Counted from the stretch's first letter, positions 2,157-36,914 are shown. The stretch is 40,450 nt of DNA from a candidate division FCPU426 bacterium (GCA_040389285.1 JAZKAF010000035.1:1-40450), one strand, 5' to 3'. The notes: generated from the sequence alone by a model not told the origin. Numbers and translations: made by a program.

Positions 2157-2191
2157 AAAAAGCCCCTTTGCGGCTTGCGCAAAAGGGCTTT
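2157..2191 (-). terminator. Intrinsic terminator after the first PorV-like gene
   Basis: Minus strand AGCCCTTTTGCG-CAAGC-CGCAAAGGGGCT followed by a T tract, about 25 nt after the stop at 2216. Confidence 0.8.
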
Positions 2192-2215: not shown

Positions 2216-3958
2216 TTATTTTACGGGCTCGACTGTCGGCTCAATCGTGGGAACAGGCGTCGCCTCGGCCGTAGGCGCGGGGGTCGCCTCGGCCGTGGCC
2301 TCCGGGGTCGGCTCGGGCTTCAGCACGAATTCCGCCTGCTTGGTCTCTGTCTTGCCAGCCCGCTCGGCGCTCAGCGCATAGACGTAGGTGCCGGGCTCCA
2401 GCGCCTTGCCATCCGCGTCCTTCAGATCAAAAAGGATCTGGTGCTCCTCGCCCGCCGAGAACTTGCCGGCTTCCAGCACACGCAGAGGCTTCTCTGGGTC
2501 CGCCTTCGCATAGACCTTCAGGGTGAGGTCCGCCTCGGCCTTGGTGCAGAATTTAAGCGAGCTGCCGGTCCCATCGATCACCAAGCAGCCGAGCTGGATG
2601 CGGATCTTTTTGGATTTTTTCGGCTTGACCACCTCGGGCGTTGGCGTAGGCGTCGGCTCGGGCGTCACCGGCGACACGTAGGCCGTGGCCGTCAGCCGAT
2701 AGTAATTCGAGAAGGCCACCTGTCCGCTGTCGTACTTCACCGACACGACCGCCTGGTAGGTCCCCGCCTCGGCCTCGGATCCGTCCTGCAGCTTCTGGTC
2801 CCAGACCACTTCTTCGGGCACCTTGCCCTGGACCAGCGTCTTGCGCACGACGAAAGGCTCTTTCACCCGGGCATTGAAGATGTAGAGGCCCCAGAGCGCC
2901 ACACGATCCGGATAGCTGACGTTGGGATGCACCGAGGTGTCGGCGTGCTGAGGATTGCTGGTCGGCATCAGGACCACCTTGGGCGATTCCAGCCAGGTCA
3001 GCATCTCGGGCTTTTGCGCGAAGTAATAGCTCAAGGAGATGCGGTAGGTGCTGCCCAGTTCGCCAAAGGGCTGGGTGGCCAAGTCGATCCGCGCGGGACC
3101 GGCCTTGAATCCTAAGCCGGCGGTCCAGGGATTGTGGATGCCATCGGAACGGAAGCCGAAGCGCGGATACAGGGTGCCGGCGATGTCGTATTCAAAGCCC
3201 AAGCCCAGCATGGGTAAATTGTCGATGGGAAGATCCAGTTCCGCGGCCAGCAGCAGCTGCGCGAGCTGGTAGCTGGCGCCCGCGCGGATGACGCGGGGCA
3301 GCTCAAAGGACTCCTGCCCCAGGGTCATGGGGTATCCGATATTCTGGACGGCGATCCCTAAGGTCAGTCCCTTGGCCTGAGTCTGATGGATGATGCCTAA
3401 GTCCAGGCCGACACCCGTGGCCGAGCTGCCCGCCACGTTCTGCCCGATCAGCTTCAGGCCGGCGCCCACCAAGAGGGTGGACCCGAGCTTCCTGGCATAG
3501 CCCAGAGTCCCGTAGGAATCCATCGAGGTGGAGGAGCCGATGCTGCGGAAATTGAGGGCGGGATCGGAGCCGTAGCCGGTCCTTTCCGTGACATCGAGCG
3601 TGGGATACTGCAGATAATTGGCGTTGAAGCCCAGGCTGCCCCAATCCCCTAAGGAAAAGGCCGCGCTAAAATGCTCAGCGGCCAGGCCCTGGAACCATTG
3701 GGAATGGGTCAGCTGGATGGAAGGAGCGGCGCGCAGCAGGCCAGCGGGGTTGTAGGACAACGCGTCCGAGTCGTCTGACAAGGCCACATAAGCCCCGCCC
3801 ATGCCGATAGCCCGGGCTCCCCCGCCCAGCTTGATCAACGGCGCGGCGGTAGTGCCAGTCTGTTCCGTGAGAGCCGCGGCGGCCGAGGCCAGGCCCAGCA
3901 AAGCCGTCAGCGAAATGGTTTTGAAGATCTGTGACCTCAACGAAGCACCGTGATCCAT
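2216..3958 (-). CDS. PorV/PorQ-family (UPF0164-like) outer-membrane barrel fused to two FlgD-like Ig domains and a Pro/Thr/Glu tail
   Basis: Signal peptide; family signature IKLGGGARAIGMGGAYVALSDDSDALSYNPAGL; barrel end PFGELGSTYRISLSYYF; FlgD-like WDQKLQDGSEAEAGTY and FDLKDADGKALEPGTY. Possible alternative start is TTG 3940, overlapping the upstream stop (TTGA). Confidence 0.8.
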   Translation of the reverse strand: MDHGASLRSQIFKTISLTALLGLASAAAALTEQTGTTAAPLIKLGGGARAIGMGGAYVALSDDSDALSYNPAGLLRAAPSIQLTHSQWFQGLAAEHFSAAFSLGDWGSLGFNANYLQYPTLDVTERTGYGSDPALNFRSIGSSTSMDSYGTLGYARKLGSTLLVGAGLKLIGQNVAGSSATGVGLDLGIIHQTQAKGLTLGIAVQNIGYPMTLGQESFELPRVIRAGASYQLAQLLLAAELDLPIDNLPMLGLGFEYDIAGTLYPRFGFRSDGIHNPWTAGLGFKAGPARIDLATQPFGELGSTYRISLSYYFAQKPEMLTWLESPKVVLMPTSNPQHADTSVHPNVSYPDRVALWGLYIFNARVKEPFVVRKTLVQGKVPEEVVWDQKLQDGSEAEAGTYQAVVSVKYDSGQVAFSNYYRLTATAYVSPVTPEPTPTPTPEVVKPKKSKKIRIQLGCLVIDGTGSSLKFCTKAEADLTLKVYAKADPEKPLRVLEAGKFSAGEEHQILFDLKDADGKALEPGTYVYALSAERAGKTETKQAEFVLKPEPTPEATAEATPAPTAEATPVPTIEPTVEPVK

Positions 3959-6051
3959 CGGCCCGTCCTTGAATGGGCTCCCGCGCCCTCCAGTTCAACC
4001 TGCAGATAATAGCTGCCAAAAGCCAAGGGCGCCCCCAGGTCGTTGCGGGCGTTCCACATGACTTCGTAGGAGCCGGAGACCGCGTAGGTCTTCGCAAAGC
4101 TGACCACCGGCTCGCCGTTCATGGTCCAGATCTTGACAGTCAGTTCGCCGTGGTAAGGCAGGTGCACCGCGATGGCGGAACCCTGCGCCGTGATGGGATG
4201 CGGATAGACCCCGATGATCGTGACCTTGCCCGTATAGTCATCGGAATGGACCACAGGTGAGATGATCCTGGTCGGCGAGGTCGAGAAGGTGGGCGACTGG
4301 GTGAAGCTTTCCGTGACGGTCGGGCTCATGCTGGGCGTCGGCGATTCGGTGTTCGTGGGCGACACCGAAAAGGTCGGCGACTCCGAGAATGTCAGGGTCG
4401 AGGTCGGCGAATCGCTCAGGGTCGGCGACGCTGTGAAGCTATTCGTCACAGAGAAGGTCGGCGACGCGGTGGGAGAATCCGTGGTGGTCGGCGAATTCGT
4501 AAGACTTGAGGTCGGTGTTGCGGTCTGGGTCGCCGTGGGCGAGTCCGTGAACGTGGGTGTATGCGTGGGAGTGGCCGTGCTCGACATGGAACCGGTGGTC
4601 GTGTTGGTCAAGGTGACCGAAGGCGAGTCCGAGAAGGTCGGCGAATTGGTGAAGCTATAGGTCGGCGTGAAGGACAGGGTCAGGGTCGGCGAGTCCGAGA
4701 ACGTCGGCGAATTGGTGAAACTGTAGGTCGGAGTAAAAGACAGGGTCATGGTCGGCGAATCCGTCCGCGTCGGCGAATTTGTGAAGCTGTAGGTCGGCGT
4801 GAAGGAGGGTGTCACCGTGGGAGAGTCCGTCCTTGTGGGCGAATCGCTGAACGTGGGCGAGGCGGTCGACGACGGCGTTGGCGTGCTGCTCGGCGTGGGG
4901 CTGGTGGTCGGCGAATTCGTGAACGTCGATGTCGGGGAATCCGTCTTGGTCGGCGAGTCGCTCAGGGTCGGCGAATCCGACCAAGTGGGGCTATTGCTGA
5001 GGGTCGGCGAATCCGTAAAAGTTTCGGTCACGGTAAGGGTGGGGGTGTGCGTGGGCGAATCGGCCGGAGTCGGTGAATCTGTGGGCGACGGCGATAGGGT
5101 ACGCGTTGGGGATTCTGACCAGGTCGGACTTACTGAACTGGAGGGACTGGGCGATTCAGTGAAAGTCTCGGACTGGGTGAAAGAATTCGTAGGACTGTAG
5201 GTCGGCGTGTACGAATTCGTATAGGTCGGAGTCAGCGGCAGGATCTCCATGTCAGCCTGATGGGAGCTCCAGACTGTGGCGGCGCCAGTGATGCTCATCA
5301 AATAGGTGCCGACCGTAGGCGCGGGCTGCACCATCAGGCCGATGTTAGCGCGCGGCGCGTTGGTGGTGTAATTGCTCTGAAAGACCTTGGTGACCACGAC
5401 ATTGGGCGTCATCTCGGTCGCGATGGTGTTCTTCTGCATCTGATAGTAGCCGATGATCAGGCTGTTCGCCTTGGAACTGCCGATCGACAGGGTATTGGTG
5501 GCCCCGCCATCCACACGCTGCGTTCCCGCCACCGGCGTGGGCGTTTCCACCACCGCTCCGTTGCGCACCAGCACCGCGGCCAAGCCATATCCGACATTTG
5601 AAGTGATAAAAGTCGTGACGGGCGTGACCGCGATGTTGGCGGTGCCGGCCGAGGGATTTCGAAGGTACCAGAGCTCCGTGTTCAGAGCCTTGCCAGCTGA
5701 GTTGTCGACATTCGCCGTGGTCTGAAGCGTGGCCACGGGCGTCATTTGCTGGGAACCGAAGAATACCTTGAGGCCCGGCTCGAAGAGCACCCCGCTCGAA
5801 GTGTGCGCGTACGAATAGCCGACCACCAGCACTGTGTCCATCTGGACACCCGCGCCTTGGACCGTAAGGGTCAGTGGCCCGGGTACGGCACTTCGGTAGT
5901 ATCCAGAATTGGCTTCACCTGGCCCGGGATAGGGTCCGGTCGGTGTAGGCGTGGCCGCGGCATGGATGAGGACGGGAGCAAAAATAAGCGCGGAAAAAAT
6001 CGCGAGGCACTGCCTCGTCAAGATCGATAACCCAGAGGATCTGCGGACCAT
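3937..6051 (-). CDS. Secreted protein A: head domain, ~320-aa Thr/Ser/Pro stalk and T9SS type A/FlgD-like C-terminal domain
   Basis: Start re-called at ATG 6051 (GGAG SD 5 nt upstream); hydrophobic signal peptide; C-terminus GVYPHP...VKIWTMNGE...WNARNDLG...GSYY...WITVLR. Confidence 0.8.
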   Translation of the reverse strand: MVRRSSGLSILTRQCLAIFSALIFAPVLIHAAATPTPTGPYPGPGEANSGYYRSAVPGPLTLTVQGAGVQMDTVLVVGYSYAHTSSGVLFEPGLKVFFGSQQMTPVATLQTTANVDNSAGKALNTELWYLRNPSAGTANIAVTPVTTFITSNVGYGLAAVLVRNGAVVETPTPVAGTQRVDGGATNTLSIGSSKANSLIIGYYQMQKNTIATEMTPNVVVTKVFQSNYTTNAPRANIGLMVQPAPTVGTYLMSITGAATVWSSHQADMEILPLTPTYTNSYTPTYSPTNSFTQSETFTESPSPSSSVSPTWSESPTRTLSPSPTDSPTPADSPTHTPTLTVTETFTDSPTLSNSPTWSDSPTLSDSPTKTDSPTSTFTNSPTTSPTPSSTPTPSSTASPTFSDSPTRTDSPTVTPSFTPTYSFTNSPTRTDSPTMTLSFTPTYSFTNSPTFSDSPTLTLSFTPTYSFTNSPTFSDSPSVTLTNTTTGSMSSTATPTHTPTFTDSPTATQTATPTSSLTNSPTTTDSPTASPTFSVTNSFTASPTLSDSPTSTLTFSESPTFSVSPTNTESPTPSMSPTVTESFTQSPTFSTSPTRIISPVVHSDDYTGKVTIIGVYPHPITAQGSAIAVHLPYHGELTVKIWTMNGEPVVSFAKTYAVSGSYEVMWNARNDLGAPLAFGSYYLQVELEGAGAHSRTGRWITVLR
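4269..5234 (-). repeat. Coding low-complexity (x-T/S)n stalk that includes about 3.5 copies of a 66-bp (22-aa) unit
   Basis: PTYSFTNSPT(RT/FS)DSPTxTLSFT recurs, with anchors at 4658, 4724 and 4790 (66-bp spacing). Confidence 0.9.
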
Positions 6052-6180
6052 CTTCACTCCGCGGCAGGGGACAAGAAGCTCTTTATCTCGGATCAAGCTC
6101 TGGAATATTTTATCGAATCCCCTAAAAAATGCCCTTTATTTCGGAATTATTTTGCATAAGAAGGGTCTGGAATTTTCGTA

Positions 6181-6210
6181 TTGCGGAATTAGGCGGTTCT
6201 TGAGGATAAT
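6181..6210 (+). promoter_or_regulatory. Possible sigma70-like promoter for the small plus-strand gene
   Basis: TTGCGG-N18-GATAAT, 35 nt upstream of ATG 6246. Confidence 0.4.
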
Positions 6211-6245
6211 CAGGACTCAAAAGAAACTAAACGGAGGAATGTTCC

Positions 6246-6536
6246 ATGGAAGCGACCCCCACTCCCCCTGCCGAAGCGCCCCAGCCGGCCGCAGCAGCTC
6301 CTGCTCCCGCGGCACCCGCGGCGGCTCCTGTTGCGCCGCCAGCCCCGACGTTCAAGCCGGCCCCCGACAATCTGACTTGCAAGGTCTGCAACGCGCCCCT
6401 GCGCTACGGACAAGAGGGGAAAACTTCCCAGGAATTCGTCTGTTCCACCCTGAAAGACGATTCACCCATCCTCACGGACAAATACGAGGAATGGCGCAAT
6501 CATTGGGTCGCTTCGCGAGTGGTACGCTCAAAATAA
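6246..6536 (+). CDS. Small hypothetical protein with a Pro/Ala-rich N-terminus and a CxxC...C...H putative Zn-binding domain
   Basis: Strong SD GGAGGA; fills the gap between two minus-strand genes; CKVC-x17-C...H pattern. Confidence 0.75.
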   Translation: MEATPTPPAEAPQPAAAAPAPAAPAAAPVAPPAPTFKPAPDNLTCKVCNAPLRYGQEGKTSQEFVCSTLKDDSPILTDKYEEWRNHWVASRVVRSK

Positions 6537-6542
6537 GGCGGC

Positions 6543-8744
6543 CTAGTCCCCTTCCCTCAACCACAGCACGCCCAACGGTGGAAGGGTCAGCTCGACACTG
6601 AAGGGCTGGCCGTTCCAGGGGTGCTGTTGCGCCGACAATTTTTGCTCTGGTCCGACGCCGCTGCCTGCATAGGCCGCGGCGTCCGTGTTTAGGATCGTGC
6701 TCCATGGCCCGCCCGCGGGCAAACCCACCCTGAAACACTGCCTTGCCACGGGCGAAAAGTTGCCGATCGCCACGATCCTCGCCGCCCCGGGCACTAGGGC
6801 CCTGGCCTGCCGGTAAAAAGTGACCACATTGTCGTTGGCGTTGCCGCCGTCGATCCAGTGGAAGCCCTCCGGCTCGGCGTCGTTGTCCCAAAGAGCTGGC
6901 TCCACGGCGTAAAGGCGGTTCAGATCCTTCACCAGTTGTTGAAGGCCGGCGTGCTCCGCGCCCGCCAAGAGATGCCAGTCCAGGCTGCTGTCGTGACGCC
7001 ACTCATCCCACTGCCCCAGCTCCCCGCCCATGAACAGCAATTTCTTGCCCGGATGCGCCCACATATAAGCGAACAGCGCCCGCATCTCGGCGAACTTGCG
7101 CCAACGGTCCCCGGGCATCTTACCCATCAGCGACCCTTTGCCGTGCACCACCTCGTCGTGGGACAAAGGCAGGATGAAATTCTCGGTCCAGGCGTAGAGC
7201 AGGCCGAAGGTCAGGTCGTCATGGTGGAACCTGCGATGGACGGGATCCTTGGAGAAATAGCGCAGCGTGTCGTGCATCCAGCCCATGTTCCATTTGAAGC
7301 CGAATCCCAGGCCTCCCGCCCAGGTGGGGCGGCTGACCCCGGGCCATGCCGTGCTCTCTTCCGCGATCATCAGGACCCCGGGGACCTGCGCGTACGCCTC
7401 GGCGTTCAGCTGCTTCAAGAATTCGATGGCCTCCAGGTTCTCCCGGCCTCCGTGCCGATTGGGGATCCATCCGTCCTTGTCGCGGCTGTAGTCCAGGTAG
7501 AGCATCGAGGCCACGGCGTCGATGCGCAGGCCGTCCAAGTGGAACTCCTTCAGCCAATAAAGGGCATTGGCGATCAGGAAGTTCTTCACCTCATTGCGGC
7601 CGTAGTTGAAGATCAAGGTGCCCCAGTCCGGATGCTCTCCCTGGCGGGGGTCCTCGTGCTCGTAGAGCGCTTCGCCGACAAAGCGCCCCAGAGCGTAGCC
7701 GTCTTTAGGGAAATGCGCCGGGACCCAGTCCAGGATGACGCCGATCCCGGCTTCGTGCAGGGCGTTCACCAGGGCGCGGAAGTCGTCGGGGCTGCCGTAG
7801 CGCGCCGTTGGCGCGTAATAATTCCCCACCTGGTAGCCCCAGGAGCCCCCGAACGGATGCTCCATGATCGGCATCAGCTCGACATGGGTGAAGCCCATCT
7901 CCTTGGCATAAGCTGGGAGTTGCTCGGCCAGCTCACGGTACGTCAGCGGCCTGTTCCCTTCCGACGGCACCCGACGCCAGGACCCCAGATGGATCTCGTA
8001 GATGCTGAGGGGCGCGCGCAGGAGCTCGCCCTTTGCCCGGTCCCGCATCCAAGCGTCATCCGTGAACTTGAACCCGCTTTCGTAATGCAGGCTGGCTGTG
8101 CCGGGCGGCATTTCTGCGGCGACGGCGAGGGGGTCCCCCTTCAAAAGATGGGGACCCTGTTTCGGGCGCACTTCGAATTTGTAAAGAAAGGCCCCTGCCA
8201 AGCTCGGGATAAAGACCTCCCAGACCCCGGATAGGCCCAGGCTACGCATGGCGTGCAGGCGGCCATCCCAGCGGTTGAAGTCTCCGGCCACGCTGACGCC
8301 CTCGGCGCCAGGCGCCCAGAGAGAGAAAGCGACCCCTGCCGTACCTTGATGGACCAGGGCATGAGCCCCTAATTTTTCCCAAAGCCGCCAGTGGCGGCCT
8401 TCCCCGAACAACTGAAGGTCCGTTTCTCCGAGGGTCGGCAAAAAACCATAGGGGTCGGCGCGCAGGTCACTGGAATCCGGTCCGCGGTAGTCCACACGCA
8501 GGCTATAACCACGCGGATATTCACCGCCCTCAAGCTCCCCCTCGAAGCAGCCAGCCACGTCCATGGGTCGCAGTGGTAGCTCGGTGCCGTCCGGGCAAAG
8601 CGCCGTCACCGTCGCGGCACCTGGCTTGAAGGCCCGTATCACCCACCCTTTAGCGGTTGCATGGGCCCCCAGCAGGGAATGCGGATTGTGGTGGCGCAGT
8701 TCGACCAGGCGCCTTAGCTCCGATCTCGAGACGGAAGCGGCCAC
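6543..8744 (-). CDS. glgB: 1,4-alpha-glucan branching enzyme (GH13)
   Basis: SIYEIHLGSW, GFTHVELMPIMEHPFGGSWGYQ, LDWVPAHFP, GLRIDAVASMLYLDYSR, IAEESTAWPGV, KWNMGWMHD, LPLSHDEVVHGK. Confidence 0.98.
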   Translation of the reverse strand: MAASVSRSELRRLVELRHHNPHSLLGAHATAKGWVIRAFKPGAATVTALCPDGTELPLRPMDVAGCFEGELEGGEYPRGYSLRVDYRGPDSSDLRADPYGFLPTLGETDLQLFGEGRHWRLWEKLGAHALVHQGTAGVAFSLWAPGAEGVSVAGDFNRWDGRLHAMRSLGLSGVWEVFIPSLAGAFLYKFEVRPKQGPHLLKGDPLAVAAEMPPGTASLHYESGFKFTDDAWMRDRAKGELLRAPLSIYEIHLGSWRRVPSEGNRPLTYRELAEQLPAYAKEMGFTHVELMPIMEHPFGGSWGYQVGNYYAPTARYGSPDDFRALVNALHEAGIGVILDWVPAHFPKDGYALGRFVGEALYEHEDPRQGEHPDWGTLIFNYGRNEVKNFLIANALYWLKEFHLDGLRIDAVASMLYLDYSRDKDGWIPNRHGGRENLEAIEFLKQLNAEAYAQVPGVLMIAEESTAWPGVSRPTWAGGLGFGFKWNMGWMHDTLRYFSKDPVHRRFHHDDLTFGLLYAWTENFILPLSHDEVVHGKGSLMGKMPGDRWRKFAEMRALFAYMWAHPGKKLLFMGGELGQWDEWRHDSSLDWHLLAGAEHAGLQQLVKDLNRLYAVEPALWDNDAEPEGFHWIDGGNANDNVVTFYRQARALVPGAARIVAIGNFSPVARQCFRVGLPAGGPWSTILNTDAAAYAGSGVGPEQKLSAQQHPWNGQPFSVELTLPPLGVLWLREGD

Positions 8745-11192
8745 TTAAGTCTCCTTGCCCAGATGTAATAACAGTTCGGGATCGAGATAGAGCAGCTGGG
8801 CCAGTTCGGTCAGATCCTCGGGCGAATGCAAAGGATCGCGTGCGCGCACCGCCTCTTCCTGGGCGCGGTCCAAGTTGGGCTCAAGGCCCAGCCTGCGGGC
8901 CACGCGGATCAGCTCGATAGCCTTCTTTAAAAAATTGGAGTCCGGGTTAGCCAGAGCGCCGCGCACCGATTCGGTGATCATCACGCTGAAATAATGGCTC
9001 GCCAGAGCGGTGTCGACGCGGTAGCCAAGGTTTTGGGCCTCGTGGACGATCTCCAGGGCCTTGGCGTAAAGCTCGGGAGCGGGATTCATATGCCGGTCCC
9101 GGATCTCAGATTCAAAACGCCGGCTCAAGGTGTACTCGGCAGCGATGCGCAACTCGGCCGGCAGTTCGAACCCGGCCGTGCGGAACATCTCCAGGCTGCG
9201 GCGGTTCTCCTGGTAGACCGCATCGTACTGCTTGCTGAGCGACTCGATGATGCCGCCGAACACCGCCTTGGCGATGCGGTCGCGCCGTCCCATCATCAGG
9301 TCTTGCAGGCCGAATTCTGCCGCCCCCGCATCCCCAGAGCCCCCGCCAAAGCCTTCGCGCATCGCGGTCAGCAGCGGCGGCACCAAGCCGTGCATGAATT
9401 CATCCCGGACGCGGGCCGAAGCCTCGGCCAACTTTTCGTCACCGCCATAGGGACCCACGCAGCAATGAAAATCGATGGCTCCCAAATGGACCGCGGCAAA
9501 GGCGGCATGAAAGGACCTGCCGGTCAGCCGGGACTCCAGCAGCACCTGTCCGGTGGTCAGGCTGGTCTTGCCCAGCAGCTCCCGTACATGGGTCAGGACC
9601 TCGCAGCGGTAGATCCCTAAGGCGCCGCCGGGATCGTCCTCCACCAGCGAGCCTATGGCCAGATCCGCGGCCAAGCGGAGCATGTCGACCCGGCTCGGTT
9701 CGACTCGGTGCCTGAACAAGTCCGCTCCGTTGCCCGCGGAAGCGAAGTTGCTTTGGGCTTCGGCAAGGACCTTCAAAAATGCCTCGCGCGGCGGGTCAAA
9801 GCCCAGCTCGGCCAAGTCGTCCATCAAACGCGCCGCGTATTTAAGGATCTGCAGGGTCTCGATACCGGACAGGTCGTTGAAGAACCAGCCACAGGAGGTG
9901 TACATCAGCATGGCCTGGCGCTGCATCTCCACCAGGGCAAGCGCCCGCACGCCCTCTTGCGCATCCAATTCACGGGCTTGCTGCGCCTTTAAAAATGCGG
10001 CGCGCGATCCAGGCCCTGGCTCGAGCACCACGGCGATGAACTCGTCGCGGGCGGCCCAGGGATCCTTCAGCAGGCCCTCGGCGCCGGCCTGAAAGCTGGC
10101 CGCGGCAAAATCGCGCAGAAGGTCAAGAGCCGAGCGCAACGGCCCACGCCAGGCCTGGTTCCAGCCCGGGTCGCCGCCGGTCTTGCATCCGCAGTCGCGC
10201 ATCCAGCGCCCCACCCCGTGGGCGCAGGACCAGGAACTGCCCATGCCGTCCGGACCGTGGTCGAGCTCCATCTCCCAAGCAAACGTAGAGCGGTCGAGGA
10301 CCTCTCCAAAATTACTGATCCGGTATCCGCGGGCGGGGGCCTCGTGCTCCAGCAGGTAGGACAGCGTGCGGTCCCCCCACTTGGTATGGTGGCCGTAGGA
10401 CTCGCCGTCGGTGGCCACACTGACCAGGCGCCCTTCGCCGTCCTTGGCCCTAGCGATCACCGCCATCAGCTCCTGGCTCGAGACCAGAGCGGACCCGAAG
10501 GCCATCTCCCTTGATATCGGGCCGTCGTAAAAAAAGACCGCGATGCCGCGACCCGATCCGTCGCGGTGGAGGTAACGGTAAGGCACGCCGGGATCCACGC
10601 TCCCATCCGGGGTGGGGGTCCACTCCGCTTCCCCGATCTTGCGCACCCGCAGGCATTGGCCCGGGGCCAGGATCACGTAACGCAGGCCTTCGTCGATCAG
10701 GGAGCCCAGCACCGCGTCGTTGCAGGCGGTCTCGGGCAGCCATAGGGATTCGGAAGCGCGCCCAAAACGGTGCCTGAACTCGCGCAAGCCCCAGCGGATC
10801 TGGGTGACGCGGTCCCGGTCATTGCAAAGCGGGAGGATGGCGTGGTTATAGCCCTGGGCGATGGCGTTGCCGTGCCCACCGTGCCGGGCCGCGGATTCGC
10901 GGTCGGCCTCGAGCAGGCGCCGGTAGCCATGCCGGTGATTCTTCTGCATCCAGGCGAGCAGGGTGGGGCCGAAATTGAAGCTCAGATGGCGGTAATTGCT
11001 GGCGATGCTGCGGATGATCCCGTCGGATCCGACGATACGGGCGGTGTCGTTGGCGCGGTAGCATTCCTGGTAAACGCGCTCGTTCCAATCGTGGAAAGGC
11101 TGAGCCGAGGGTTCCGGTTCCATGATCTCGGTCCAGGGATTTTCCCGGGGCGGCTGGTAAAAATGGCCGTGGATGACCAGGTCGCCCGACAT
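8745..11192 (-). CDS. GH57-family / DUF3536 glycoside hydrolase (~815 aa)
   Basis: Starts MSGDLVIHGHFYQPPRENPW at ATG 11192 with a GGGGAGG SD; HDWNER, SFNFGPTLL, NHAILPL, WLPETA, ATDGESYGHH, SSWSCAHGVGRW, MYTSCGWFF. This is the C-terminal part of the 1311-aa track ORF. Confidence 0.88.
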   Translation of the reverse strand: MSGDLVIHGHFYQPPRENPWTEIMEPEPSAQPFHDWNERVYQECYRANDTARIVGSDGIIRSIASNYRHLSFNFGPTLLAWMQKNHRHGYRRLLEADRESAARHGGHGNAIAQGYNHAILPLCNDRDRVTQIRWGLREFRHRFGRASESLWLPETACNDAVLGSLIDEGLRYVILAPGQCLRVRKIGEAEWTPTPDGSVDPGVPYRYLHRDGSGRGIAVFFYDGPISREMAFGSALVSSQELMAVIARAKDGEGRLVSVATDGESYGHHTKWGDRTLSYLLEHEAPARGYRISNFGEVLDRSTFAWEMELDHGPDGMGSSWSCAHGVGRWMRDCGCKTGGDPGWNQAWRGPLRSALDLLRDFAAASFQAGAEGLLKDPWAARDEFIAVVLEPGPGSRAAFLKAQQARELDAQEGVRALALVEMQRQAMLMYTSCGWFFNDLSGIETLQILKYAARLMDDLAELGFDPPREAFLKVLAEAQSNFASAGNGADLFRHRVEPSRVDMLRLAADLAIGSLVEDDPGGALGIYRCEVLTHVRELLGKTSLTTGQVLLESRLTGRSFHAAFAAVHLGAIDFHCCVGPYGGDEKLAEASARVRDEFMHGLVPPLLTAMREGFGGGSGDAGAAEFGLQDLMMGRRDRIAKAVFGGIIESLSKQYDAVYQENRRSLEMFRTAGFELPAELRIAAEYTLSRRFESEIRDRHMNPAPELYAKALEIVHEAQNLGYRVDTALASHYFSVMITESVRGALANPDSNFLKKAIELIRVARRLGLEPNLDRAQEEAVRARDPLHSPEDLTELAQLLYLDPELLLHLGKET

Positions 11193-12680
11193 CAGGCCCT
11201 CCCCCAGCGGCGGGTCAAGGCCGCGAGGCGCGAAGCCAGCGCAGGCGTCAGGGTGGCGGGCAGGTTCCGCCATCCCCAGTTCCCCTCCGCGGTCCCGGGA
11301 CGGTTCATGCGGGCCTCGGCCCCCAGTTCGAGCAGGTCCTGAAGGGGGACAATCGCCGTGCGCGACGCGGTGCCCAGAGCCGCGGCGATCAAGGGCCAGA
11401 CTTTCCCGGCCTCGCCGCTGCCGGCCGCCCAACGCGCGGCCCGTTCCCTTTCGGCCCGGAACGCGGCGACCTGCTCCGGAGGGAGGCGCCTCGGAAAGCC
11501 AGCCCAGGGTGGTGTCATTGTCGTGCGTACCTGTGTAGACCACGCAGTCTTCCTCGAAGTGTCCGGGGGTCAGCTCTTCCCCGCTCCCAAAACTGAACTG
11601 GATCACCCGCATGCCGGGGATCTTGAAACTTTTGCGCAGGGCGGTCACCTCGGGCGTCACCACCCCCAGGTCTTCGGCGATGATCGGCATATGGGGGAAG
11701 GCGCCTTCCAAAGCGCTCAAAAAATCCATGCCCGGCCCGGGAGCGTAGGCCCCGTCCCGGGCGGTGGGGGAGCTGGCTGGGATCTGCCATTCACGATGAA
11801 AGCCGATGAAATGGTCGACCCGCATGGCGTCGAACATCTCGATGGCCCGCCGAAAACGGGAGATCCACCAGGCGTAGCCGTCGGCCTTGTGCCGGTCCCA
11901 GCGGTAGAGCGGATTGCCCCAATGCTGGCCGTCTTCGCTGAAGTAGTCGGGCGGGACTCCGGCGACCTTCAAGGGCTGCCCCCGCAGGTCCAGGTCGAAG
12001 AGTGCCGGATTCGCCCAGACGTCCGCGCTGTCGTGCGAGACGAAGATGGGCATGTCACCGATCAGGGCCACGCCCTTTTCGTGGGCGTAGTTGCGCAGCC
12101 CTGTCCATTGGCCATGATAAAGATATTGGACGAATTTTTCAAAGTCGGTCTCGTCAGCTGGCAAGGCCCGGACCACAGCGGGATCCCAGTCCACCCAATG
12201 CAGGCCGTTTTGCAGGCGCTTGGCCGCCGAAAAACGCGCCCAGTCCTCCAGCCAAAAAGCGTGGTCCCTGCTAAAATCCAGCAGTCCTTTTTTTTGCCCG
12301 CTGTCGGCCCGGCCTTTAAAACGTTCCCAGGCGCGGCGCAGCCTGGCGACCCGGAACTCCGCGGTGGCGGCGAAATCCGACCGCTCGAGAGCCAGGGGCC
12401 GAGGGGGTAATAAGTCGCCCGCTGCCAGCCAGCCCTGCTGGGCCAGGAGCTCTAAACTGATGAAAAAGGGGTTTCCAGCGAAAACGGAAAGGGCCTGGTA
12501 GGGCGAGTCGCCTGTCCCGGTGGGATGGCAGGGCAATAGCTGCCACCAAGACTGGCCTGCGGCGGACAAAAAATCGACAAAACGATAGGCTTCGGGCCCC
12601 AGGTCTCCGCTAGCCCAGGGTCCTGATAGCGATGTGACGTGGCACAAAACGCCCGCGCTGCGGTCCTGTAAAGTCTTCAA
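11192..12680 (-). CDS. malQ: 4-alpha-glucanotransferase (GH77) interrupted by a +1 frameshift near 11480-11500
   Basis: The N-terminal part has WQLLP, SPYQALS, IGDMPIFV, GVPPDYFSEDGQHWGNP, RVDHFIGF, IIAEDLG and YTGTHDNDT. The canonical C-terminus IVPLQDLLELGAEARMNRPGTAEGNWGWR lies in another frame (track ORF 11192..11518). Repaired length is about 495 aa. Confidence 0.9.
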
Positions 12681-13039: not shown

Positions 13040-13708
13040 CTATTGTCCGCCCTCGCCCAGATGATGGCGGATGTCCTTGCCTTTCACCATGAAGATCACG
13101 TCCTCGGCGATATTGGTGGCGTGGTCGCCCACTTTCTCCAAATTACGGGCGATCAGGATCAGGTCCAATCCGCGGCGCACGGTGGAGGCGTTCTTGGACA
13201 TCTCCGTCAGCTGCTCGTCGAAGATCTGGTCCTTCAACGCATCCACCATCACCTCCTTGGTCAACACCGACTCGGCGATGCTCACGTCCTGCTGGACAAA
13301 GGCGTCCAACGACTCATGCACCATCTCCGAGGCCAGGCCGGCCATGCGGCCCAGGCTCTCGGTGAGCTTTTGTTTGGGCGCCTTCAACAGGTCCATGGTG
13401 TTCTGCGAGATGTTGCAGGCCTGATCGCCGATGCGTTCCAGGTCGTTGTTGATCTTCAGCGCCGCGATGATGGTGCGCAGATCCGAGGCCAGGGGGGCCT
13501 GAGCCGCAAAGAGGCGCATGCAGTGGTCATCGATGTCCACGTGCAGGCGGTTGACCTGGTCCTCGTAGGTCATGATGTCGCCGCTGTGCTCCAAGTTCCT
13601 CTCCAACAGCGCCTTGACGCTTCCCTGGATCATCTTTTCGCAGAGGCCGCCCATGGTCAGCAACTGTTCTTTGAGCTCGTTGAGCTCTTCGTCAAAATGT
13701 CGCTGCAT
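13040..13708 (-). CDS. phoU: Phosphate signalling complex protein PhoU
   Basis: MQRHFDEEL..., PLASDLR, NDLERIGDQACNI, RNLEKVGDHATNIAEDVIFMVKGKDIRH. Confidence 0.97.
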   Translation of the reverse strand: MQRHFDEELNELKEQLLTMGGLCEKMIQGSVKALLERNLEHSGDIMTYEDQVNRLHVDIDDHCMRLFAAQAPLASDLRTIIAALKINNDLERIGDQACNISQNTMDLLKAPKQKLTESLGRMAGLASEMVHESLDAFVQQDVSIAESVLTKEVMVDALKDQIFDEQLTEMSKNASTVRRGLDLILIARNLEKVGDHATNIAEDVIFMVKGKDIRHHLGEGGQ

Positions 13709-14481
13709 CAGCCGAACCTCCCTGTGATGTAATCTTCCGTGCGCTTGTCCTTGGGATTGGTGAAAATGGTGGTGGTCCGGTCATATTCCACCATGCGGCC
13801 CAGCATGAAAAAGGCCGCATAATCCGCGACCCGGCCCGCTTGCTGCATGTTATGGGTTACGATCACCACCGTAAACTCATTTTTCAGCTTCAGGATCAGC
13901 TCTTCGATGATGCCGGTGGCGATGGGATCGAGCGCGGAACAGGGCTCGTCCATCAGCAGGACCTCAGGTTTTGTGGCCACCGCCCTGGCGATGCAAAGGC
14001 GCTGCTGCTGGCCGCCGGAGAGGTCCAGGGCCGAGGCGTGCAGGCGGTCCTTGGCCTCGTTCCAAAGGCCGGCCACTTTCAGGCTCTCTTCAGCGGCCTG
14101 TTCCAGCACCCGCCGGTCCCGCACCCCGTCGATACGCAGGCCGTAGACCACGTTCTCGAAGATGCTCTTAGGGAAGGGGTTGGTCTTTTGGAAGACCATG
14201 CCGGTCCGCTTGCGCAGCGCGATGACGTCAACGCCCTTTTGATAGATATCCTCGCCGTGGATGAAGACCTTTCCCTGGATCTTCACCCCGTCGATAAGGT
14301 CGTTCAGGCGGTTGAAGCAGCGTAATAACGTCGACTTGCCGCAACCCGAAGGGCCGATGAAAGCCGTCACCCGCTTTTCGGGGATGGCGAGGTTGACGTC
14401 GTAGAGCGCCTGGGAGGGACCGTAAAACAGGTTGAGGCGGTCCACTTTGACGGCTAAGGGCTGTTCCATGTCGATCGTCAT
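13708..14481 (-). CDS. pstB: Phosphate ABC transporter ATP-binding protein
   Basis: [59 protein letters not shown]. Confidence 0.98.
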
Positions 14482-14482
14482 G

Positions 14483-16144
14483 TCAAAATCCTGAAGTGCG
14501 ATAACGGTTGCGGAGCCTGTTCCTGATGACCATGGCGGCCAGGTTGAGGCCCACCACCACCGCGATCAGAAGCAGGGTGGTGGTGTAGACCATGGGCATG
14601 GCCGCTTCGACGTTCGGGCTCTGGAACCCCACGTCATAGATGTGGAAACCCAGATGCATGAACTTGCGGTCCAGGTGCATGAACGGAAAACGGGTGTCAA
14701 AGGGGAGGTTTGGCGCCAGCTTGACCACCCCTGTGATCATCAAGGGCGCTACCTCGCCGGCGCCGCGGGCCATGGCCAGGATCATGCCCGTCAGGATGCC
14801 GGGCGCGGCCGAGGGCAGCACCACATGGCGGATGGTCTGCCATTTGGTGGCCCCGCAGGCCAGCGAACCGTCGCGGAGGCCCTTGGGCACGAAGGCCAGG
14901 GCCTCTTCAGTGGCCACCACCACCACGGGCACGGTCAAGAGCGCCAGCGTCAGGCTGGCCCAAAGGATGCCCCCGGTGCCGTAGGTCGGGGTGGGAAGCG
15001 CCTCGGCGAAAAAGATCCGGTCGATGCTGGAGCCCAGGCCGTAGACAAAAAAGCCGAGTCCAAAGACGCCAAAGACGATCGAGGGGACGCCCGCCAGGTT
15101 GTTCACAGCGATGCGCACCACCGAGACCAGGGGGCCCTGTTTGGCGTATTCGCGAAGATAGAGCGCGGCCACCACGCCGAAAGGCACCACCAAAAGGCTC
15201 ATCAGCAGGGTCATCATCACGGTCCCGAAGATGGCAGGAAAAACGCCGCCTTCGGTGTTGGATTCCCGCGGCTCCCCGAAGATGAACTCGACGACCCGCG
15301 AGAGGTAGGCGCCCGCCTTTCCGAAAAAGCCCATGCGGTTGGGCTCCAGCACGCGCACCAGCTGCGAAAAGGCCAGGGTCTTTTCGGCGCCTTCGGCGGA
15401 CTTAAAAGTCACCTTGAAGCGCTCATCCTCGCTACGCAAGGCCTGGATCTGGCCGGTGACGGTGGTGTAGCGCGACTGCCAGAGCGCCGTTTCAGCGTCC
15501 AGAGCGGATTTTTCTTCGGCCGAAGCCTGGCGCAGCTTGAGACGGATCCTCTCGATCTCGAAATTGATACGCCCGACTTCCTCGTTCTCCAGGTGATGCA
15601 GGGCCTTCCATCGCTTCGCCCCTTCCTTGATCCCCTTCTGCAGGCGCCGGTCGAATCCCGCCGAATCAGCGGCATAGGCCTGGCCTTCGGCCTCCAAGGA
15701 GCTGGCCCAGCCGATCAAGGGGCCCCATTCACGGCGTTCGACATAGAGAACGTCCGCTGGGCGTTCACGTTTGACCACGTCCGATTCGTCCACCCACACG
15801 AAGTCCTTGGACGTCAGGTCGCGGTTCGCGGTCATCAGCTGGATGCGAGGCGTGACCGAGAGCACCTTGCCGTTATCATCCTTCTCCTCATAACGCTCCC
15901 GGTCGCGGATGACCCCGGCCATCACGCTTCCGTCCTTCAAGGAGAATTTCTGGACATCCCTGGGCCAGAAAAAGGACGTCCCCTCGAAGACCACGATGGC
16001 CAGCAGGAGCAGGATCATGAAAAGGACCAAGGCGCTGGCCGCGCCGGCCAGCCAGATGAAAGGCTCGCCCAGCTTCACCATGCGTCGGACGCTGATCCCC
16101 TCTTCCATCACCAGCGATCGTTTGGGTTTCTTGTCCAGGTTCAT
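14483..16144 (-). CDS. pstA: Phosphate ABC transporter permease PstA (long form)
   Basis: [54 protein letters not shown]; large N-terminal soluble insertion. Confidence 0.95.
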
Positions 16145-18321
16145 AGCTGGCTGTACCGCTTGCGTAGTTGAAGGCGGATCATCTCGGCCACCGAATTGAC
16201 AGCGAAGGTCATCATGAACAGCACCAGGGAGGCCAGGAACAGCACTCGGTACAGGGATCCCCCCACGGGGGCCTCAGGGATCTCGACGGCCACGTTGGCC
16301 GACAGCGCCCTAAAACCGTTGAAGGCGCTCAGATCCATCACCGGCGTGTTGCCCGTGGCCATCAGCACGATCATGGTCTCGCCCACCGCCCTGCCGAATC
16401 CCACCATGACCGCGGAAAAAATACCAGACAGCGCCACCGGCAGCACCACGCGCAAAGCGGTCTGCCAGGGCGTGGCCCCGCAGGAAAGCGAGGCTGAGAC
16501 CAGATGTCTTGGCACGGCGCTCAAGGCGTCCTCGCAGATGGTGAAGATGACCGGGATCACGGCGAAGCCCATGGCGAATCCCACCACCAGGGAGTTGCGC
16601 TGGTCGTAATTGACCGCGAAATGGGCCCGCATCCATATCTTGAGGTCCAGGAACAGAGCGTGTTCAAGGACGGGCCCGACCAGGAACAAGAGCGTGATGC
16701 CGACACCTAAGCCGAGGACCAGCACCAGGATCTCCGAATCATCCGCGACCTTGCGCGAAAAATGGCGGGGCGCGCTGCGCCACAGCCACAAGGTGGCCAT
16801 CACCACCATGGGCAGCACCGGCACTCCCAGCAAAAGCGTGAAAAGATATTTTTCCATGAAAGGCGCCAGCAGCATCGCGGCGAAAAAGCCCATCACCACC
16901 GACGGCACCGCGGCCATGATCTCGATCACGGGCTTCACGACTCCCCTGAGGCGCGGCGACATGAATTGGGAGGTGTAAAGCGCGGCCAGGATCGCCAGGG
17001 GCACGGCGAAGAGCAGGGCGTACAAAGTGCCCTTCAAGGTGCCGTAGATCAGGGGTGTCAGGGAGAATTTGGGCTCAAAGTCGTCGCTGCCGCCGGTGGA
17101 CTGCCAGACATAGTCGGGCTTGTCATAGCCCTCGTACCAGATCTTGGAGAACAGCGCCTTGAAGTTGACTTCCGGATGGGGATTGTCCAGTCCCAAGAGC
17201 CAGGTCTTGCCCCCGCCGTCCCTCACCAGGATCCCGTCGGCTTTAGGCGTCATCAAAAGGCCGCCGCGCTTCCAGTCGCCTTCCAGCTGCCTTTGGAAAA
17301 GCGTCCGCTCGTTGGTCAGAAAATAAAGGCCCAGGGCTCCCTGGCCCGTGACCGCGCAGAAGCCCTTGTCCCTGGGGCTGGCAGCGAAGCCAAGCACCGG
17401 CCCTTTCAAAGGCGCGAAGTGGTGGATCACCTTAAAGACCCGGCCGCCACCCTCGGGGCGGTCGATCAGAAAGCAGGCGACGAGATCGCCTTCGGATGAC
17501 CCGCAGAGCACGCTCTGCTGTCCCACTGGATATCCCAGGGCGGTCAAGGCCTTCCCCTCAAAAACCCTCAGATCCTGGTCGAGCTGCCAGCCTTTGGCGC
17601 TACCCGGACTGGCGCCCGGGGCCGCAAAAGAAAGCAAATGGCCCGTGTCCGTGCCCAGCAAAACCCGGTCCGCGCTGTCAGGCACCAGCAGGCTGACCGC
17701 GTTGCCGGCCGAAGCCGGGATCTCAAGGACATCATTGAGGCGGTCCTGCCGGATCAGCACCCTGCCATCGGCGGCCAAGCCGGCGATCAACAACGACTCC
17801 GTGCCTCCAAAACGAAGTTCGCGGATGGCCTTTTTCTGGGGATCCAGCAACTGCAGGCTGCCCCCCTCGATAAAGGGCTCCTGAATGCGTTTATCCCCGT
17901 CAAAACGGGTCTTAAAGCCGGCCTGGGCCGTCCAGACTCGGCCGTCCTGGGTTCCCAGGGCCAGCCGAAGGCGGTTGTCCACGGCGGAGCAGGTCGGTAG
18001 TGAGACGCCCAGGTTTTGGAGTGGGAATTCGGGGCCCGAAAGGGCTGAAGAGGCGATGTCAAAAAAAGCCGCTTTACCCGCGGCCGAGATAAGAAGCGCC
18101 TTTTCCTGATGCTCGTCGACCAATACCGCCAGGGTGCCCGAAGGGCTGATGGCGATGGGGCGGCCGACCTTGGCGGCTCGGAAAAGAGGCAGGATGGTGT
18201 AGCCGATAAAAATAAAGATCCCCAGCACCGCCGCGATCACCGCCAGGCCGCCGATGCTTATGCACCAGTCGGCCAGGCGGTCTATCAGCAGGGTGCGGGG
18301 ATCGGTGCCCCGTCTCTTCAA
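16141..18321 (-). CDS. pstC: Phosphate ABC transporter permease PstC (long form with beta-propeller-like soluble domain)
   Basis: WYEGYDKPDYVWQSTGGSDDFEPKFSL, EIMAAVPSVV, YDQRNSLVVG, GRAVGETMIVLMATGNTP; located between pstS and pstA. Confidence 0.92.
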   Translation of the reverse strand: MKRRGTDPRTLLIDRLADWCISIGGLAVIAAVLGIFIFIGYTILPLFRAAKVGRPIAISPSGTLAVLVDEHQEKALLISAAGKAAFFDIASSALSGPEFPLQNLGVSLPTCSAVDNRLRLALGTQDGRVWTAQAGFKTRFDGDKRIQEPFIEGGSLQLLDPQKKAIRELRFGGTESLLIAGLAADGRVLIRQDRLNDVLEIPASAGNAVSLLVPDSADRVLLGTDTGHLLSFAAPGASPGSAKGWQLDQDLRVFEGKALTALGYPVGQQSVLCGSSEGDLVACFLIDRPEGGGRVFKVIHHFAPLKGPVLGFAASPRDKGFCAVTGQGALGLYFLTNERTLFQRQLEGDWKRGGLLMTPKADGILVRDGGGKTWLLGLDNPHPEVNFKALFSKIWYEGYDKPDYVWQSTGGSDDFEPKFSLTPLIYGTLKGTLYALLFAVPLAILAALYTSQFMSPRLRGVVKPVIEIMAAVPSVVMGFFAAMLLAPFMEKYLFTLLLGVPVLPMVVMATLWLWRSAPRHFSRKVADDSEILVLVLGLGVGITLLFLVGPVLEHALFLDLKIWMRAHFAVNYDQRNSLVVGFAMGFAVIPVIFTICEDALSAVPRHLVSASLSCGATPWQTALRVVLPVALSGIFSAVMVGFGRAVGETMIVLMATGNTPVMDLSAFNGFRALSANVAVEIPEAPVGGSLYRVLFLASLVLFMMTFAVNSVAEMIRLQLRKRYSQL

Positions 18322-18324
18322 TGC

Positions 18325-19278
18325 TTAGTCGACCTTGGAGCTTTCCTTGTCCGCGGTCTCGGCGGGCAAGGGGAGGAAACCGTCCTTGATGGTGATCTGC
18401 TGGCCGTCTTTGCTGAGCACGAACTTCACGAATTCCGCCACCATCGGGTCCAGCGGGCGGTTGGGAGCCTTGTTGATGTAAAGGAACAGGTAGCGCTTCA
18501 GCGGGTACTTGCCGCTATAGACGCCTTCGGCGCTGGCTTCGATATAGCTGCCACCCTCTTCTTTCGCCAGCTTCAAGGCCTTGACCGCCGAGGTCTGGTA
18601 GCCCATGCCGGAGTAGCCGATGCCGTTCGCATCGCGGCCCACACCCTGCACCACGCTGGCCGAACCAGGCTGCTCTTTGACCGTGGCCTTGTAGTCACCC
18701 TTGTAAAGGGCGTTGTCCTTGAAGAACCCGTAGGTCCCGGAGGCCGAATTACGTCCATAAAGGCTGATCTGGCCCTTGCTGCCGTCGACCTGGCTCCAGT
18801 CCTTGATGTTCGCGCCGCCGCCGCGCAGGGTCTTGGAGAAGATCCCATCCACCTGCTTCAGCGTCAGCTTGTCCACGGGGTTGTTCTTGTTCACGAAGAC
18901 CGACAGGGCGTCCAGGGACACCTTGATCTCGGTGGGCTTGTAGCCGTATTTCTTTTCGAACGCGTCGATCTCGGTGTTCTTCATCTCGCGGGACATGGGC
19001 CCGATCTGGGAGGTCCCGGCGATCAGGGCCGGAGGGGCGGTCGAGCTGCCCTTGGCCTCGATCTGGATGCGCACGTTCGGGTAATGCTTCCGGAAGCCTT
19101 CGGCCCAGAAGGTCATCAGGTTAGCCAGCGTGTCCGACCCGATGGAGCTGATGTTGCCCGAGATCCCCGACACTTCCTTGTACGCCGGCAGTCCGGCGTC
19201 GACTTTCACCGGCGCCGCCGTCGCGCTGGCAGATACTGCCGCCAGGGCGAAGACCGCGCTCTTCAACAAAGCTTTCAT
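18325..19278 (-). CDS. pstS: Phosphate ABC transporter substrate-binding protein
   Basis: Signal peptide; SIGSDTL, AKGSSTAPPAL, GPMSR, GRNSASGTYGFF; AAGGAG SD. Confidence 0.96.
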   Translation of the reverse strand: MKALLKSAVFALAAVSASATAAPVKVDAGLPAYKEVSGISGNISSIGSDTLANLMTFWAEGFRKHYPNVRIQIEAKGSSTAPPALIAGTSQIGPMSREMKNTEIDAFEKKYGYKPTEIKVSLDALSVFVNKNNPVDKLTLKQVDGIFSKTLRGGGANIKDWSQVDGSKGQISLYGRNSASGTYGFFKDNALYKGDYKATVKEQPGSASVVQGVGRDANGIGYSGMGYQTSAVKALKLAKEEGGSYIEASAEGVYSGKYPLKRYLFLYINKAPNRPLDPMVAEFVKFVLSKDGQQITIKDGFLPLPAETADKESSKVD

Positions 19279-19303
19279 GGTTGTCTCCTTGTCCGTTTGA
19301 TAA

Positions 19304-19347
19304 AGGGTACGATGCCTATGTTACGTTCAGGTTAATTCCAGGTGACA
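19304..19347 (-). promoter_or_regulatory. Pho box and -10 element of pstS
   Basis: Minus strand GTCAC-N6-TTAAC-N6-GTAAC (11-bp period; plus-strand starts 19342, 19331, 19320), then N10 and TACCCT. Confidence 0.8.
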
Positions 19348-19362
19348 AGCCCGTTTCGGGGC

Positions 19363-20694: not shown

Positions 20695-20743
20695 TGCTTC
20701 CTCCTAAGGTTGTATAAAAATCTTTGAGCGCCTTGTTTCGACG

Positions 20744-20797
20744 AGCTTAGCCCGGCCATGTAACGGCTTTGTGACGTCAAAAGACCGCCTTCGTTAA
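20744..20797 (-). promoter_or_regulatory. Pho box and -10 element of the porin gene
   Basis: Minus strand TTAAC-N17-GTCAC-N6-GTTAC (plus-strand starts 20793, 20771, 20760; multiples of 11), then N10 and TAAGCT. Confidence 0.75.
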
Positions 20798-20937
20798 CTT
20801 AAAGCTTGGATCCCTTTTACGTAAGCGGCCGGGGCAAACCCGATCTCGGGTCACCCCAGCCTGCTCACGGGATCGGGGCGAGCCGATGAAACCCGCCCTT
20901 CAGGAGGATCAGGGCCTCTTGCAGCCCAAACCCGTAG

Positions 20938-22886: not shown

Positions 22887-22944
22887 TCCCGGACATCATC
22901 GTGCCCGGGCGTTAACGGCGGGGGTAGCCGCGGTAAATTCGAGG

Positions 22945-24282: not shown

Positions 24283-24284
24283 CT

Positions 24285-24983: not shown

Positions 24984-25046
24984 GGAATTCCTTGAAGATC
25001 CGCCATTTTCCGACACTCCATTTTTCGTCCCGTAAGTTTCCTCAGT

Positions 25047-25073
25047 GTAACGCCGATGTTAAATCGCCTTCAA
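25047..25073. promoter_or_regulatory. Pho box in the divergent phoB / DUF47-PiT intergenic region
   Basis: Minus strand TTGAA-N6-TTAAC-N6-GTTAC (plus-strand starts 25069, 25058, 25047; 11-bp period). No clear -10 at the N10 position. Confidence 0.65.
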
Positions 25074-25145
25074 CTTATCTTTGCTTTGAAAAATAGGCGT
25101 TTCCCCCTAAAATAGCCCATCACTCCCCCTAACCCGCGAGGCCCC

Positions 25146-28966: not shown

Positions 28967-29004
28967 AAAAAAAAGGCCCCCGACCTCGGTCGGGAGCCTT
29001 TTTT
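28967..29004 (-). terminator. Intrinsic terminator of rpmB
   Basis: Minus strand GGCTCCCGAC-CGAG-GTCGGGGGCC followed by T8. Confidence 0.9.
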
Positions 29005-36884: not shown

Positions 36885-36914
36885 AGTATAAAAGAAGTGC
36901 CCCTAGGAAATCAA
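36885..36914 (-). promoter_or_regulatory. sigma70 promoter positioned for leaderless translation of protein C
   Basis: TTGATT-N18-TATACT-N6-GTG start; no SD. Confidence 0.65.

Follow-up and report, generated by a model that had tools for sequence, protein, structure and literature searches.

Two gene modules on the minus strand of a 40,450-nucleotide (nt) stretch of DNA from a candidate division FCPU426 bacterium (GCA_040389285.1, JAZKAF010000035.1:1-40450; the whole stretch is referred to here as the window) each couple one or two signal-peptide-bearing surface proteins, which carry a type-A-like, immunoglobulin (Ig)-fold C-terminal domain (CTD), to a FadL-type barrel of the PorV/PorQ family. 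We lean towards reading these modules as cargo-anchor cassettes of a cut-down surface-display route that resembles a type IX secretion system (T9SS), the cargo gene being, by its junction, translationally coupled to the gene for its barrel. Pairs of this kind recur through the genome and in its relatives, and the binding of one cargo tail to its barrel is predicted by structure modelling.

The genome analysed comprises 2.12 Mb in 180 contigs and is 84.9% complete. Together with 30 relatives it forms a set of 31 genomes, drafts included, from 15 families of one phylum. Public profile models were read against their score cut-offs (NF033709 PorV_fam, 90 bits; TIGR04183, 23 bits; FlgD_ig, 27 bits; UPF0164, 21.4 bits; the PorV and PorQ equivalogs NF033710 and NF033711, 250 and 220 bits; TIGR04131, 35 bits; TIGR04189, 200 bits), and matches to the proteins of the window were reported at an expectation value (E) of 0.01 or less. 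An in-house hidden Markov model (HMM) of the tails was built from the 17 tails of the present genome that pass TIGR04183.

Two cargo-barrel modules and their proteins

Module 1 consists of cargo 1 (3937..6051 from an ATG preceded by GGAG, minus strand) and barrel 1 (2216..3958, minus strand). The longest open reading frame (ORF) for cargo 1 begins at a TTG at 6096 and translates into 719 amino acids (aa). After an N-terminus resembling a signal peptide come a head (~250 aa) and a linker rich in Ser, Thr and Pro (~300 aa), and the protein ends in an Ig-like CTD, at residues 627-717 counted from that TTG. The head has no family match, and an Atlas search of it returned only unnamed clusters, at 0.91. 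In barrel 1 the barrel proper spans residues ~11-320; two Ig domains resembling FlgD_ig and a tail rich in Pro and Thr come after it. Its ATG at 3958, with AAGGA 7 nt upstream, overlaps the TGA of cargo 1 (3937..3939) by 22 nt, and an alternative TTG start within the overlap would leave a 4-nt TTGA junction. A terminator-like hairpin (2159..2191, minus strand; 14-bp stem and T run), 25 nt past the barrel 1 stop, appears to close the module; it comes from a consensus scan only, in which the total number of terminator-like sites was not enriched over shuffled sequence.

Module 2 comprises three genes in the order cargo 3, cargo 2, barrel 2, all on the minus strand. The first of these, which the original prediction for this DNA had overlooked in describing a cargo-barrel pair, is cargo 3 (33372..36878; 1168 aa), with a DUF7948/SBBP beta-propeller (166 and 139 bits, respectively), a long Ser/Thr/Pro linker and a type A CTD (TIGR04183, 28.4 bits). 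A promoter-like site lies ahead of it at 36914..36885, and only 89 nt, with no terminator-like site, separate it from cargo 2 (31291..33282; 663 aa), in which an unassigned head and a Thr/Pro linker precede a type A CTD at residues 570-663. Cargo 2 meets barrel 2 (29354..31294) in an ATGA overlap at 31291..31294. Barrel 2 carries its barrel at residues 1-311, then FlgD_ig-like domains (32.6 bits) and an OmpA peptidoglycan-binding domain at residues 532-634 (65.9 bits). A second terminator-like hairpin, likewise from a consensus scan only (28969..29004, minus strand; 16-bp stem and T run), 350 nt past the barrel 2 stop, is the likely end of the module. All five module proteins begin with a signal-peptide-like sequence, as judged by eye.

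Both overlaps between cargo and barrel genes, as originally predicted, are thus present, and Shine-Dalgarno use, which had also been claimed, finds support in Shine-Dalgarno-like motifs before 13 of the 22 gene starts checked. The proposed TTGnnn/TAnnnT promoters find no support: the scans gave 2 and 4 hits against 0.9 +/- 1.0 and 2.5 +/- 1.5 in shuffled sequence, no excess.

Both barrels belong to the PorV/PorQ family, as had been proposed. They pass NF033709 with 133.4 bits (barrel 1) and 138.2 bits (barrel 2), and PorV is the best match by profile as well as by fold. A profile of 49 barrels searched against the PDB matched Flavobacterium johnsoniae PorV (6h3i_F) at E 2.2e-42, with TodX next at 1e-5. 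An AlphaFold2 model of residues 1-320 of barrel 2, made with 49 paralogues and relatives (predicted local distance difference test, pLDDT, 92; predicted template modelling score 0.85), was placed by Foldseek nearest to PorV 8gl6_F (E 8.7e-15, TMq 0.72) and 6h3i_F (E 9.5e-12, TMq 0.70), followed by FadL (6e-8); in this model an N-terminal segment is packed inside a small barrel. PorP_SprF matched neither barrel at E<=0.01. Membership of UPF0164 holds for barrel 2 (28.9 bits) but not for barrel 1, which had no UPF0164 match in the Pfam search. Neither barrel reaches an equivalog cut-off: for PorQ the scores were 78.5 bits (barrel 1) and 90.0 bits (barrel 2) against 220, and for PorV barrel 1 scored 38.2 bits against 250 while barrel 2 was absent among the 25 models shown, and the PorV equivalog scores given for barrels of the present genome, 38 and 56 bits, fall short of 250.

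Across the genome, about 24 genes account for the 26 NF033709 matches, of which 21 exceed the cut-off, and the barrels are 21-58% identical to each other. The C-terminal extensions of both module barrels, FlgD_ig-like on both (26.7 bits on barrel 1, against 27) and OmpA on barrel 2, had been overlooked; such extensions vary among barrels between OmpA, fn3 and Ig. The architecture of barrel 2 (UPF0164, FlgD_ig and OmpA, ~650 aa) is found in 30 protein clusters at 39-60% identity, and farther relatives also fuse TPR repeats. The label most common among Atlas neighbours of barrel 2 is Elusimicrobiota, which we take as no more than a lead; matches to GlgB were mostly from Actinomycetota (53-62% identity), are uninformative as to the phylum and probably follow the history of that gene. 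The C-terminal Ig domain (residues 441-516 of 532) of a barrel ORF on contig C95 (1562..3160, minus strand) scores 39 bits on the cargo-tail HMM, so some barrels themselves bear a CTD-like domain. On contig C24, two PorV-like barrels with fn3 and FlgD_ig extensions lie in tandem (5867..7507 and 7520..9514, minus strand), with pyruvate kinase and no tail gene upstream.

Judged by their motifs and profile matches, the tails are type-A-like and not type B. Aligned, they share YPNP, G-x-Y and a terminal V-x-R, and among solved structures a profile of the tails best matches the CTD of PorZ (5m11, E 3.4e-7) and that of PorU (6za2, E 3.5e-6). Seventeen matches over the TIGR04183 cut-off were found in the genome. 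The original description of the module tails as type-A-like fared unevenly. The C-termini of cargos 2 and 3 exceed the cut-off of the type A model; cargo 2 scores 26.0 bits on TIGR04183, 41 on FlgD_ig and 110.9 on the in-house HMM, and misses the type B model TIGR04131 (18.1 bits against 35). Cargo 1 is unmatched by TIGR04183 and stays below the cut-off for FlgD_ig (21.7 bits), but the in-house HMM gives its tail (627-717) 57 bits (E 7e-16).

A variant tail with two conserved Cys residues was seen in ORFs on contigs C29 (4505..6538), C33 (7240..7974) and C74 (1..2463). Identity is 58% between the tails of C29 and C33 and about 30% between these and that of C74, which is homologous to them and matches the tail HMM weakly; an HMM of the variant also matches ordinary CTD ORFs.

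Pairing, co-diversification and predicted binding

Sixteen of the 24 barrel genes in the present genome lie directly downstream of a same-strand tail gene. Twelve of these pairs were recognized by the tail HMM, two on inspection (contigs C150 and C95) and two by variant Cys tails (C29 and C33); in the 14 pairs without Cys-variant tails, the gap between the genes ranges from -22 to +85 nt. An arithmetic estimate for 51 tails and 24 barrels in 2.12 Mb, with a window of ~400 nt, gives about 0.1 adjacencies by chance, and chance or artefact as the source of the pairing was rejected on this comparison. The paired cargos are diverse, including SBBP/DUF7948 propellers, Ice_binding and DUF11 proteins, a Peptidase_S8 subtilase and proteins whose heads belong to no known family.

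The family is large throughout the phylum, with 10-55 PorV_fam matches per genome in 31 of 31 genomes. In G009, a single-contig genome from another family of the same phylum, a tail ORF ends no more than 500 nt upstream of 21 of the 30 distinct barrels, the gap being at most 120 nt in 18 of the 21. The corresponding figure in G002, which belongs to the same family as the present genome, is 10 of 24 rows (about 22 distinct genes). The expectation that cargo-barrel adjacency would recur and exceed chance is thereby borne out.

Across the 14 pairs, tail and barrel distances are correlated (Mantel r 0.657; 1 of 20,001 permutations as high, p 5e-5), a signal that owes much to a few close paralogue groups, with a Spearman coefficient of only 0.30. 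Tail and barrel have the same nearest neighbour in 7 of the 14 pairs.

The CTD binds extracellular loops of PorV, and PorV-CTD complexes have been solved (PMC10994853). Modelling of barrel 2 (residues 1-320) with the tail of cargo 2 gave interaction scores (ipSAE) of 0.85, 0.85 and 0.86; the highest value among three controls was 0.01. Between runs, 98% or more of the contacts agreed, and the pLDDT of the partner was 87. In a benchmark of this score, 58 of 80 solved complexes came up to the mark, as did 2 of 110 mismatched pairs. The predicted contacts involve alternate turns of the barrel, which we read as the extracellular loops, together with the N-terminal segment of the barrel, and on the tail side the conserved motifs and the last 8 residues.

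A putative surface-display route and its alternatives

No PorK, PorL, PorM, PorN or SprA gene lies in the window, as originally noted, and no complete canonical T9SS was found in the genome, in which an SprA-like gene is present and the motor and PorU went undetected. The SprA/Sov-like ORF is on contig C78; it extends for 1836 aa before being truncated at the contig end and scores 206.2 bits on TIGR04189. Each of the 31 genomes has SprA-like ORFs, ~1700-2300 aa in length, with summed scores over the cut-off in 4. The route thus appears not to be independent of the T9SS core. GldL, GldM and GldN were each found in 0 of 31 genomes, in searches of draft genomes run without a positive control. GldK was over its cut-off in 0 of 31, and sub-threshold, generic sulfatase-like matches to it also arise in control genomes. 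PorU matches in the present genome cover only its CTD part. Peptidase_C25 had no match in the present genome and exceeded its cut-off in 2 of the 31, neither of them of this family. The two domains (G016:C2:433497-434387 and G022:C195:3075-3923; 167 and 133 bits), one in a 1195-aa frame, possibly represent PorU-like proteases in parts of the phylum.

A candidate for an energizing system lies at the end of the window, in a co-directional cluster (38277..40450, continuing to ~45941) of a PorV-like gene, a TPR protein, a barrel, ExbB, ExbD and a TonB-like protein. The gene at its head is the best-scoring PorV-like gene of the genome (308 aa, 177 bits). The TPR protein (995 aa) has YbgF-, BamD- and PorW-like matches, the barrel (~590 aa) has no assigned family, and ExbB (39431..40087), ExbD (~39043..39441) and the TonB-C-like protein (38277..39038) follow. 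At ~40421..40450, with contig C35 continuing just beyond, a run of N divides one barrel-like gene; the resulting ORFs, of 478 and 103 aa, correspond to parts that are contiguous in relatives. Six of six genomes from the family and order of the window share the gene arrangement TPR-barrel-ExbB-ExbD; the ~590-aa barrel had one weak match only among the other 24 genomes. The cluster might be a system of the Tol/TonB type, or else a candidate for powering the T9SS-like route.

In the route that we propose, cargo would be exported into the periplasm by Sec and would cross the outer membrane through the SprA-like pore, whereupon its CTD would be captured by extracellular loops of the barrel that is translated from the shared mRNA. 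No sortase was found, so we infer that the CTD is not cut off and that the cargo would be retained non-covalently and permanently on its private barrel. The Ig, fn3 or OmpA extensions at the C-terminus of the barrel, presumably periplasmic, would attach the complex to the wall. For barrel 2, it is the OmpA domain that would tie the complex to peptidoglycan, uniting the roles of PorP and PorE in one chain. Cargos without a barrel of their own would probably share a general barrel, as three type B orphans do in F. johnsoniae. A wider proposal, which we regard as tentative and rather doubtful in its full extent, is that type IX-like secretion across the phylum is carried out by the outer-membrane core alone: one SprA-like pore and dozens of cargo-specific, permanent and often wall-tethered PorV-like anchors would operate without a PorLM/KN motor or PorU, with energy for the release step supplied otherwise and the ExbBD-TonB cluster as a candidate source.

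Several observations weigh against the cassette reading. Among the 51 tail ORFs, 41 are assessable (the other 10 are too near a contig end): 16 adjoin a barrel, 3 are only near one, within 5 kb upstream of it, and for 22 the 5 kb downstream contain no barrel. Eight of the 24 barrels have no upstream cargo, the genes in front of them including those for a glycosyltransferase, pyruvate kinase and epimerases and an EVE-domain gene. The idea of dedicated adaptors for individual cargos, advanced in the original prediction, therefore holds for the 16 paired barrels but not as a one-to-one rule, and "one barrel per cargo" is at most half of the story. For pair 2, G002 offers no near equivalent: its best barrel is 42% identical and lies behind an EVE-domain gene, so individual cassettes appear to turn over within a lasting design. 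Cargo 1 fails the public type A models, matching neither TIGR04183 nor Por_Secre_tail at E<=0.01; neither barrel matches Pfam PF19572 PorV at that threshold, and the equivalog shortfall described above points the same way. The distance correlation, with its low Spearman value, suggests that modules duplicate as units and is no proof of specific binding, and the complex score, which may reflect likeness to the solved PorV-CTD complexes (8GL6 and relatives), is for a single modelled cognate pair silent on cognate preference. A barrel bound to peptidoglycan cannot, if the predicted tether is real, double as a freely moving shuttle. The GldL, GldM and GldN negatives, obtained without a positive control, and the draft state of the genome are further points on this side, and the cassette reading draws on genes and predicted structures.

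Some of these observations would fit barrels that are interchangeable PorV-type shuttles, with adjacency a matter of stoichiometric co-expression or of tandem duplication history and the cargo released. About half of the assessable cargos have no nearby barrel, a single barrel serves two cargos in module 2, near relatives of the true partner also pass the complex test, and Bacteroidota use one PorV for all type A CTDs (PMC12618676). We nevertheless consider this alternative unlikely. Keeping 10-55 paralogues in every one of 31 genomes of 2-5 Mb would be costly for interchangeable parts; the barrels are only 21-58% identical, their divergence follows that of the adjoining tail, and their OmpA, fn3 and Ig extensions vary; and a sortase able to free cargo or attach it again was not found.

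The barrels might instead retain a FadL-like uptake function, the CTD docking a surface enzyme or binding protein on the channel in a capture-and-import arrangement like that of SusC/SusD, which would not primarily be secretion. The fold does resemble the transporters FadL, TodX and TbuX, a subtilase and other possible substrate-binding proteins are among the paired cargos, and one barrel-rich cluster adjoins the ExbB-ExbD-TonB-like genes. However, PorV is clearly nearest by sequence (E 2.2e-42 against 1e-5) and by structure, the tails are of T9SS type, an SprA-like pore is present in all 31 genomes, and many cargos are stalk- or adhesin-like without an enzyme domain, so that an uptake pair seems to us improbable. 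That each pair is a self-contained two-partner secretion unit, its small barrel exporting the upstream cargo without SprA, is very improbable indeed: tight translational coupling and the undetected T9SS motor would suit it, but the N-terminal segment of the model is packed inside a small PorV/FadL-like barrel, neither PorV nor FadL is known to pass folded proteins, the cargos reach 1168 aa with beta-propellers, and the SprA-like translocon is conserved in all 31 genomes.

Two other loci of the window were also annotated. In a single 1311-aa ORF (8745..12680, minus strand), a GH77 4-alpha-glucanotransferase (residues 14-399) and a GH57/DUF3536 region (residues 589-1113) are connected by an Arg/Gly/Pro-rich stretch that looks out of frame or of low complexity; a genuine fusion, a frameshift and a misassembly are all possible origins of this ORF. 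A phosphate-acquisition block (13040..26792) contains phoU, pstB, two long pst permease genes, pstS and a porin O/P-like gene, together with genes for a metallophosphoesterase and a histidine kinase and response regulator, and on the opposite strand a PHO4-type transporter.

Comparison with known systems

The T9SS is described as exclusive to Bacteroidota in PMC12618676, and in a literature search that left most subscription journals uncovered we found no description of PorV-like cargo pairs outside that phylum. The arrangement seen here most resembles, in genetic layout, the type B cargos with their PorP/SprF barrels, such as SprB-SprF of F. johnsoniae and PG1035-PorP of Porphyromonas gingivalis, which likewise place the cargo directly upstream of its own FadL-type barrel in many paralogous copies. 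Genes for type B cargo have cognate PorP/SprF genes directly downstream, and in Bacteroidota a single PorV serves type A cargo, private barrels being reserved for type B; in F. johnsoniae three type B orphan cargos share one barrel (PMC12618676). Sharing of a barrel by orphan cargos and retention of the cargo with an uncleaved CTD, which are on record for the type B systems (PMC12618676, PMC9143113), are proposed here as well. In the present modules the barrels are instead PorV/PorQ and the tails short and type-A-like; GldKLMN and PorU went undetected, and membership of the lineage in Bacteroidota is not shown.

A tie of a cargo-bearing barrel to the wall by an OmpA-type peptidoglycan-binding domain also has a counterpart in P. 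gingivalis, where PorP anchors PG1035 and PorE links the complex to peptidoglycan (PMC9143113). Here the tie is predicted, and the OmpA domain is fused to barrel 2, whereas PorE is a separate lipoprotein. The PorV of the SprA translocon (F. johnsoniae; 6H3I, 8GL6) is the best match of the barrels in sequence and structure, and the predicted CTD contacts lie on the loops as they do in the solved substrate complexes. Bacteroidota, however, have one PorV for all type A cargo, whereas the present genome has about 24 paralogues, most of them with their own cargo and many with Ig, fn3 or OmpA extensions.

In the P. gingivalis attachment complex, a CTD protein stays permanently on its barrel by means of an uncleaved CTD, as in the pairs PorU-PorV and PorZ-PorQ, and porU and porV are adjacent genes. 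It is the CTDs of PorZ and PorU that the tails described here match best among solved structures. Those proteins, however, are machinery that processes other cargo, whereas the partners here are surface proteins of diverse kinds and are themselves the end product, and the search found no catalytic domain of PorU. A further relative is the UPF0164/FadL-like family of Treponema, whose model barrel 2 passes (28.9 bits against 21.4) and barrel 1 does not match; we know of no tie of that family to CTD cargo.

Set beside these systems, it is here the PorV branch that appears to have undergone an expansion into private barrels, serving type-A-like cargo, with the SprA-like pore kept and the motor and sortase undetected. 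If this is true, carrier specialization would be general to FadL-type carriers rather than a peculiarity of PorP/SprF, and these genomes would offer a natural minimal system in which to gauge the contribution of motor and sortase. The surface proteomes of uncultured lineages would become predictable by a tail-then-barrel rule. The fused OmpA, Ig and fn3 extensions suggest a direct link from surface protein through outer membrane to wall.

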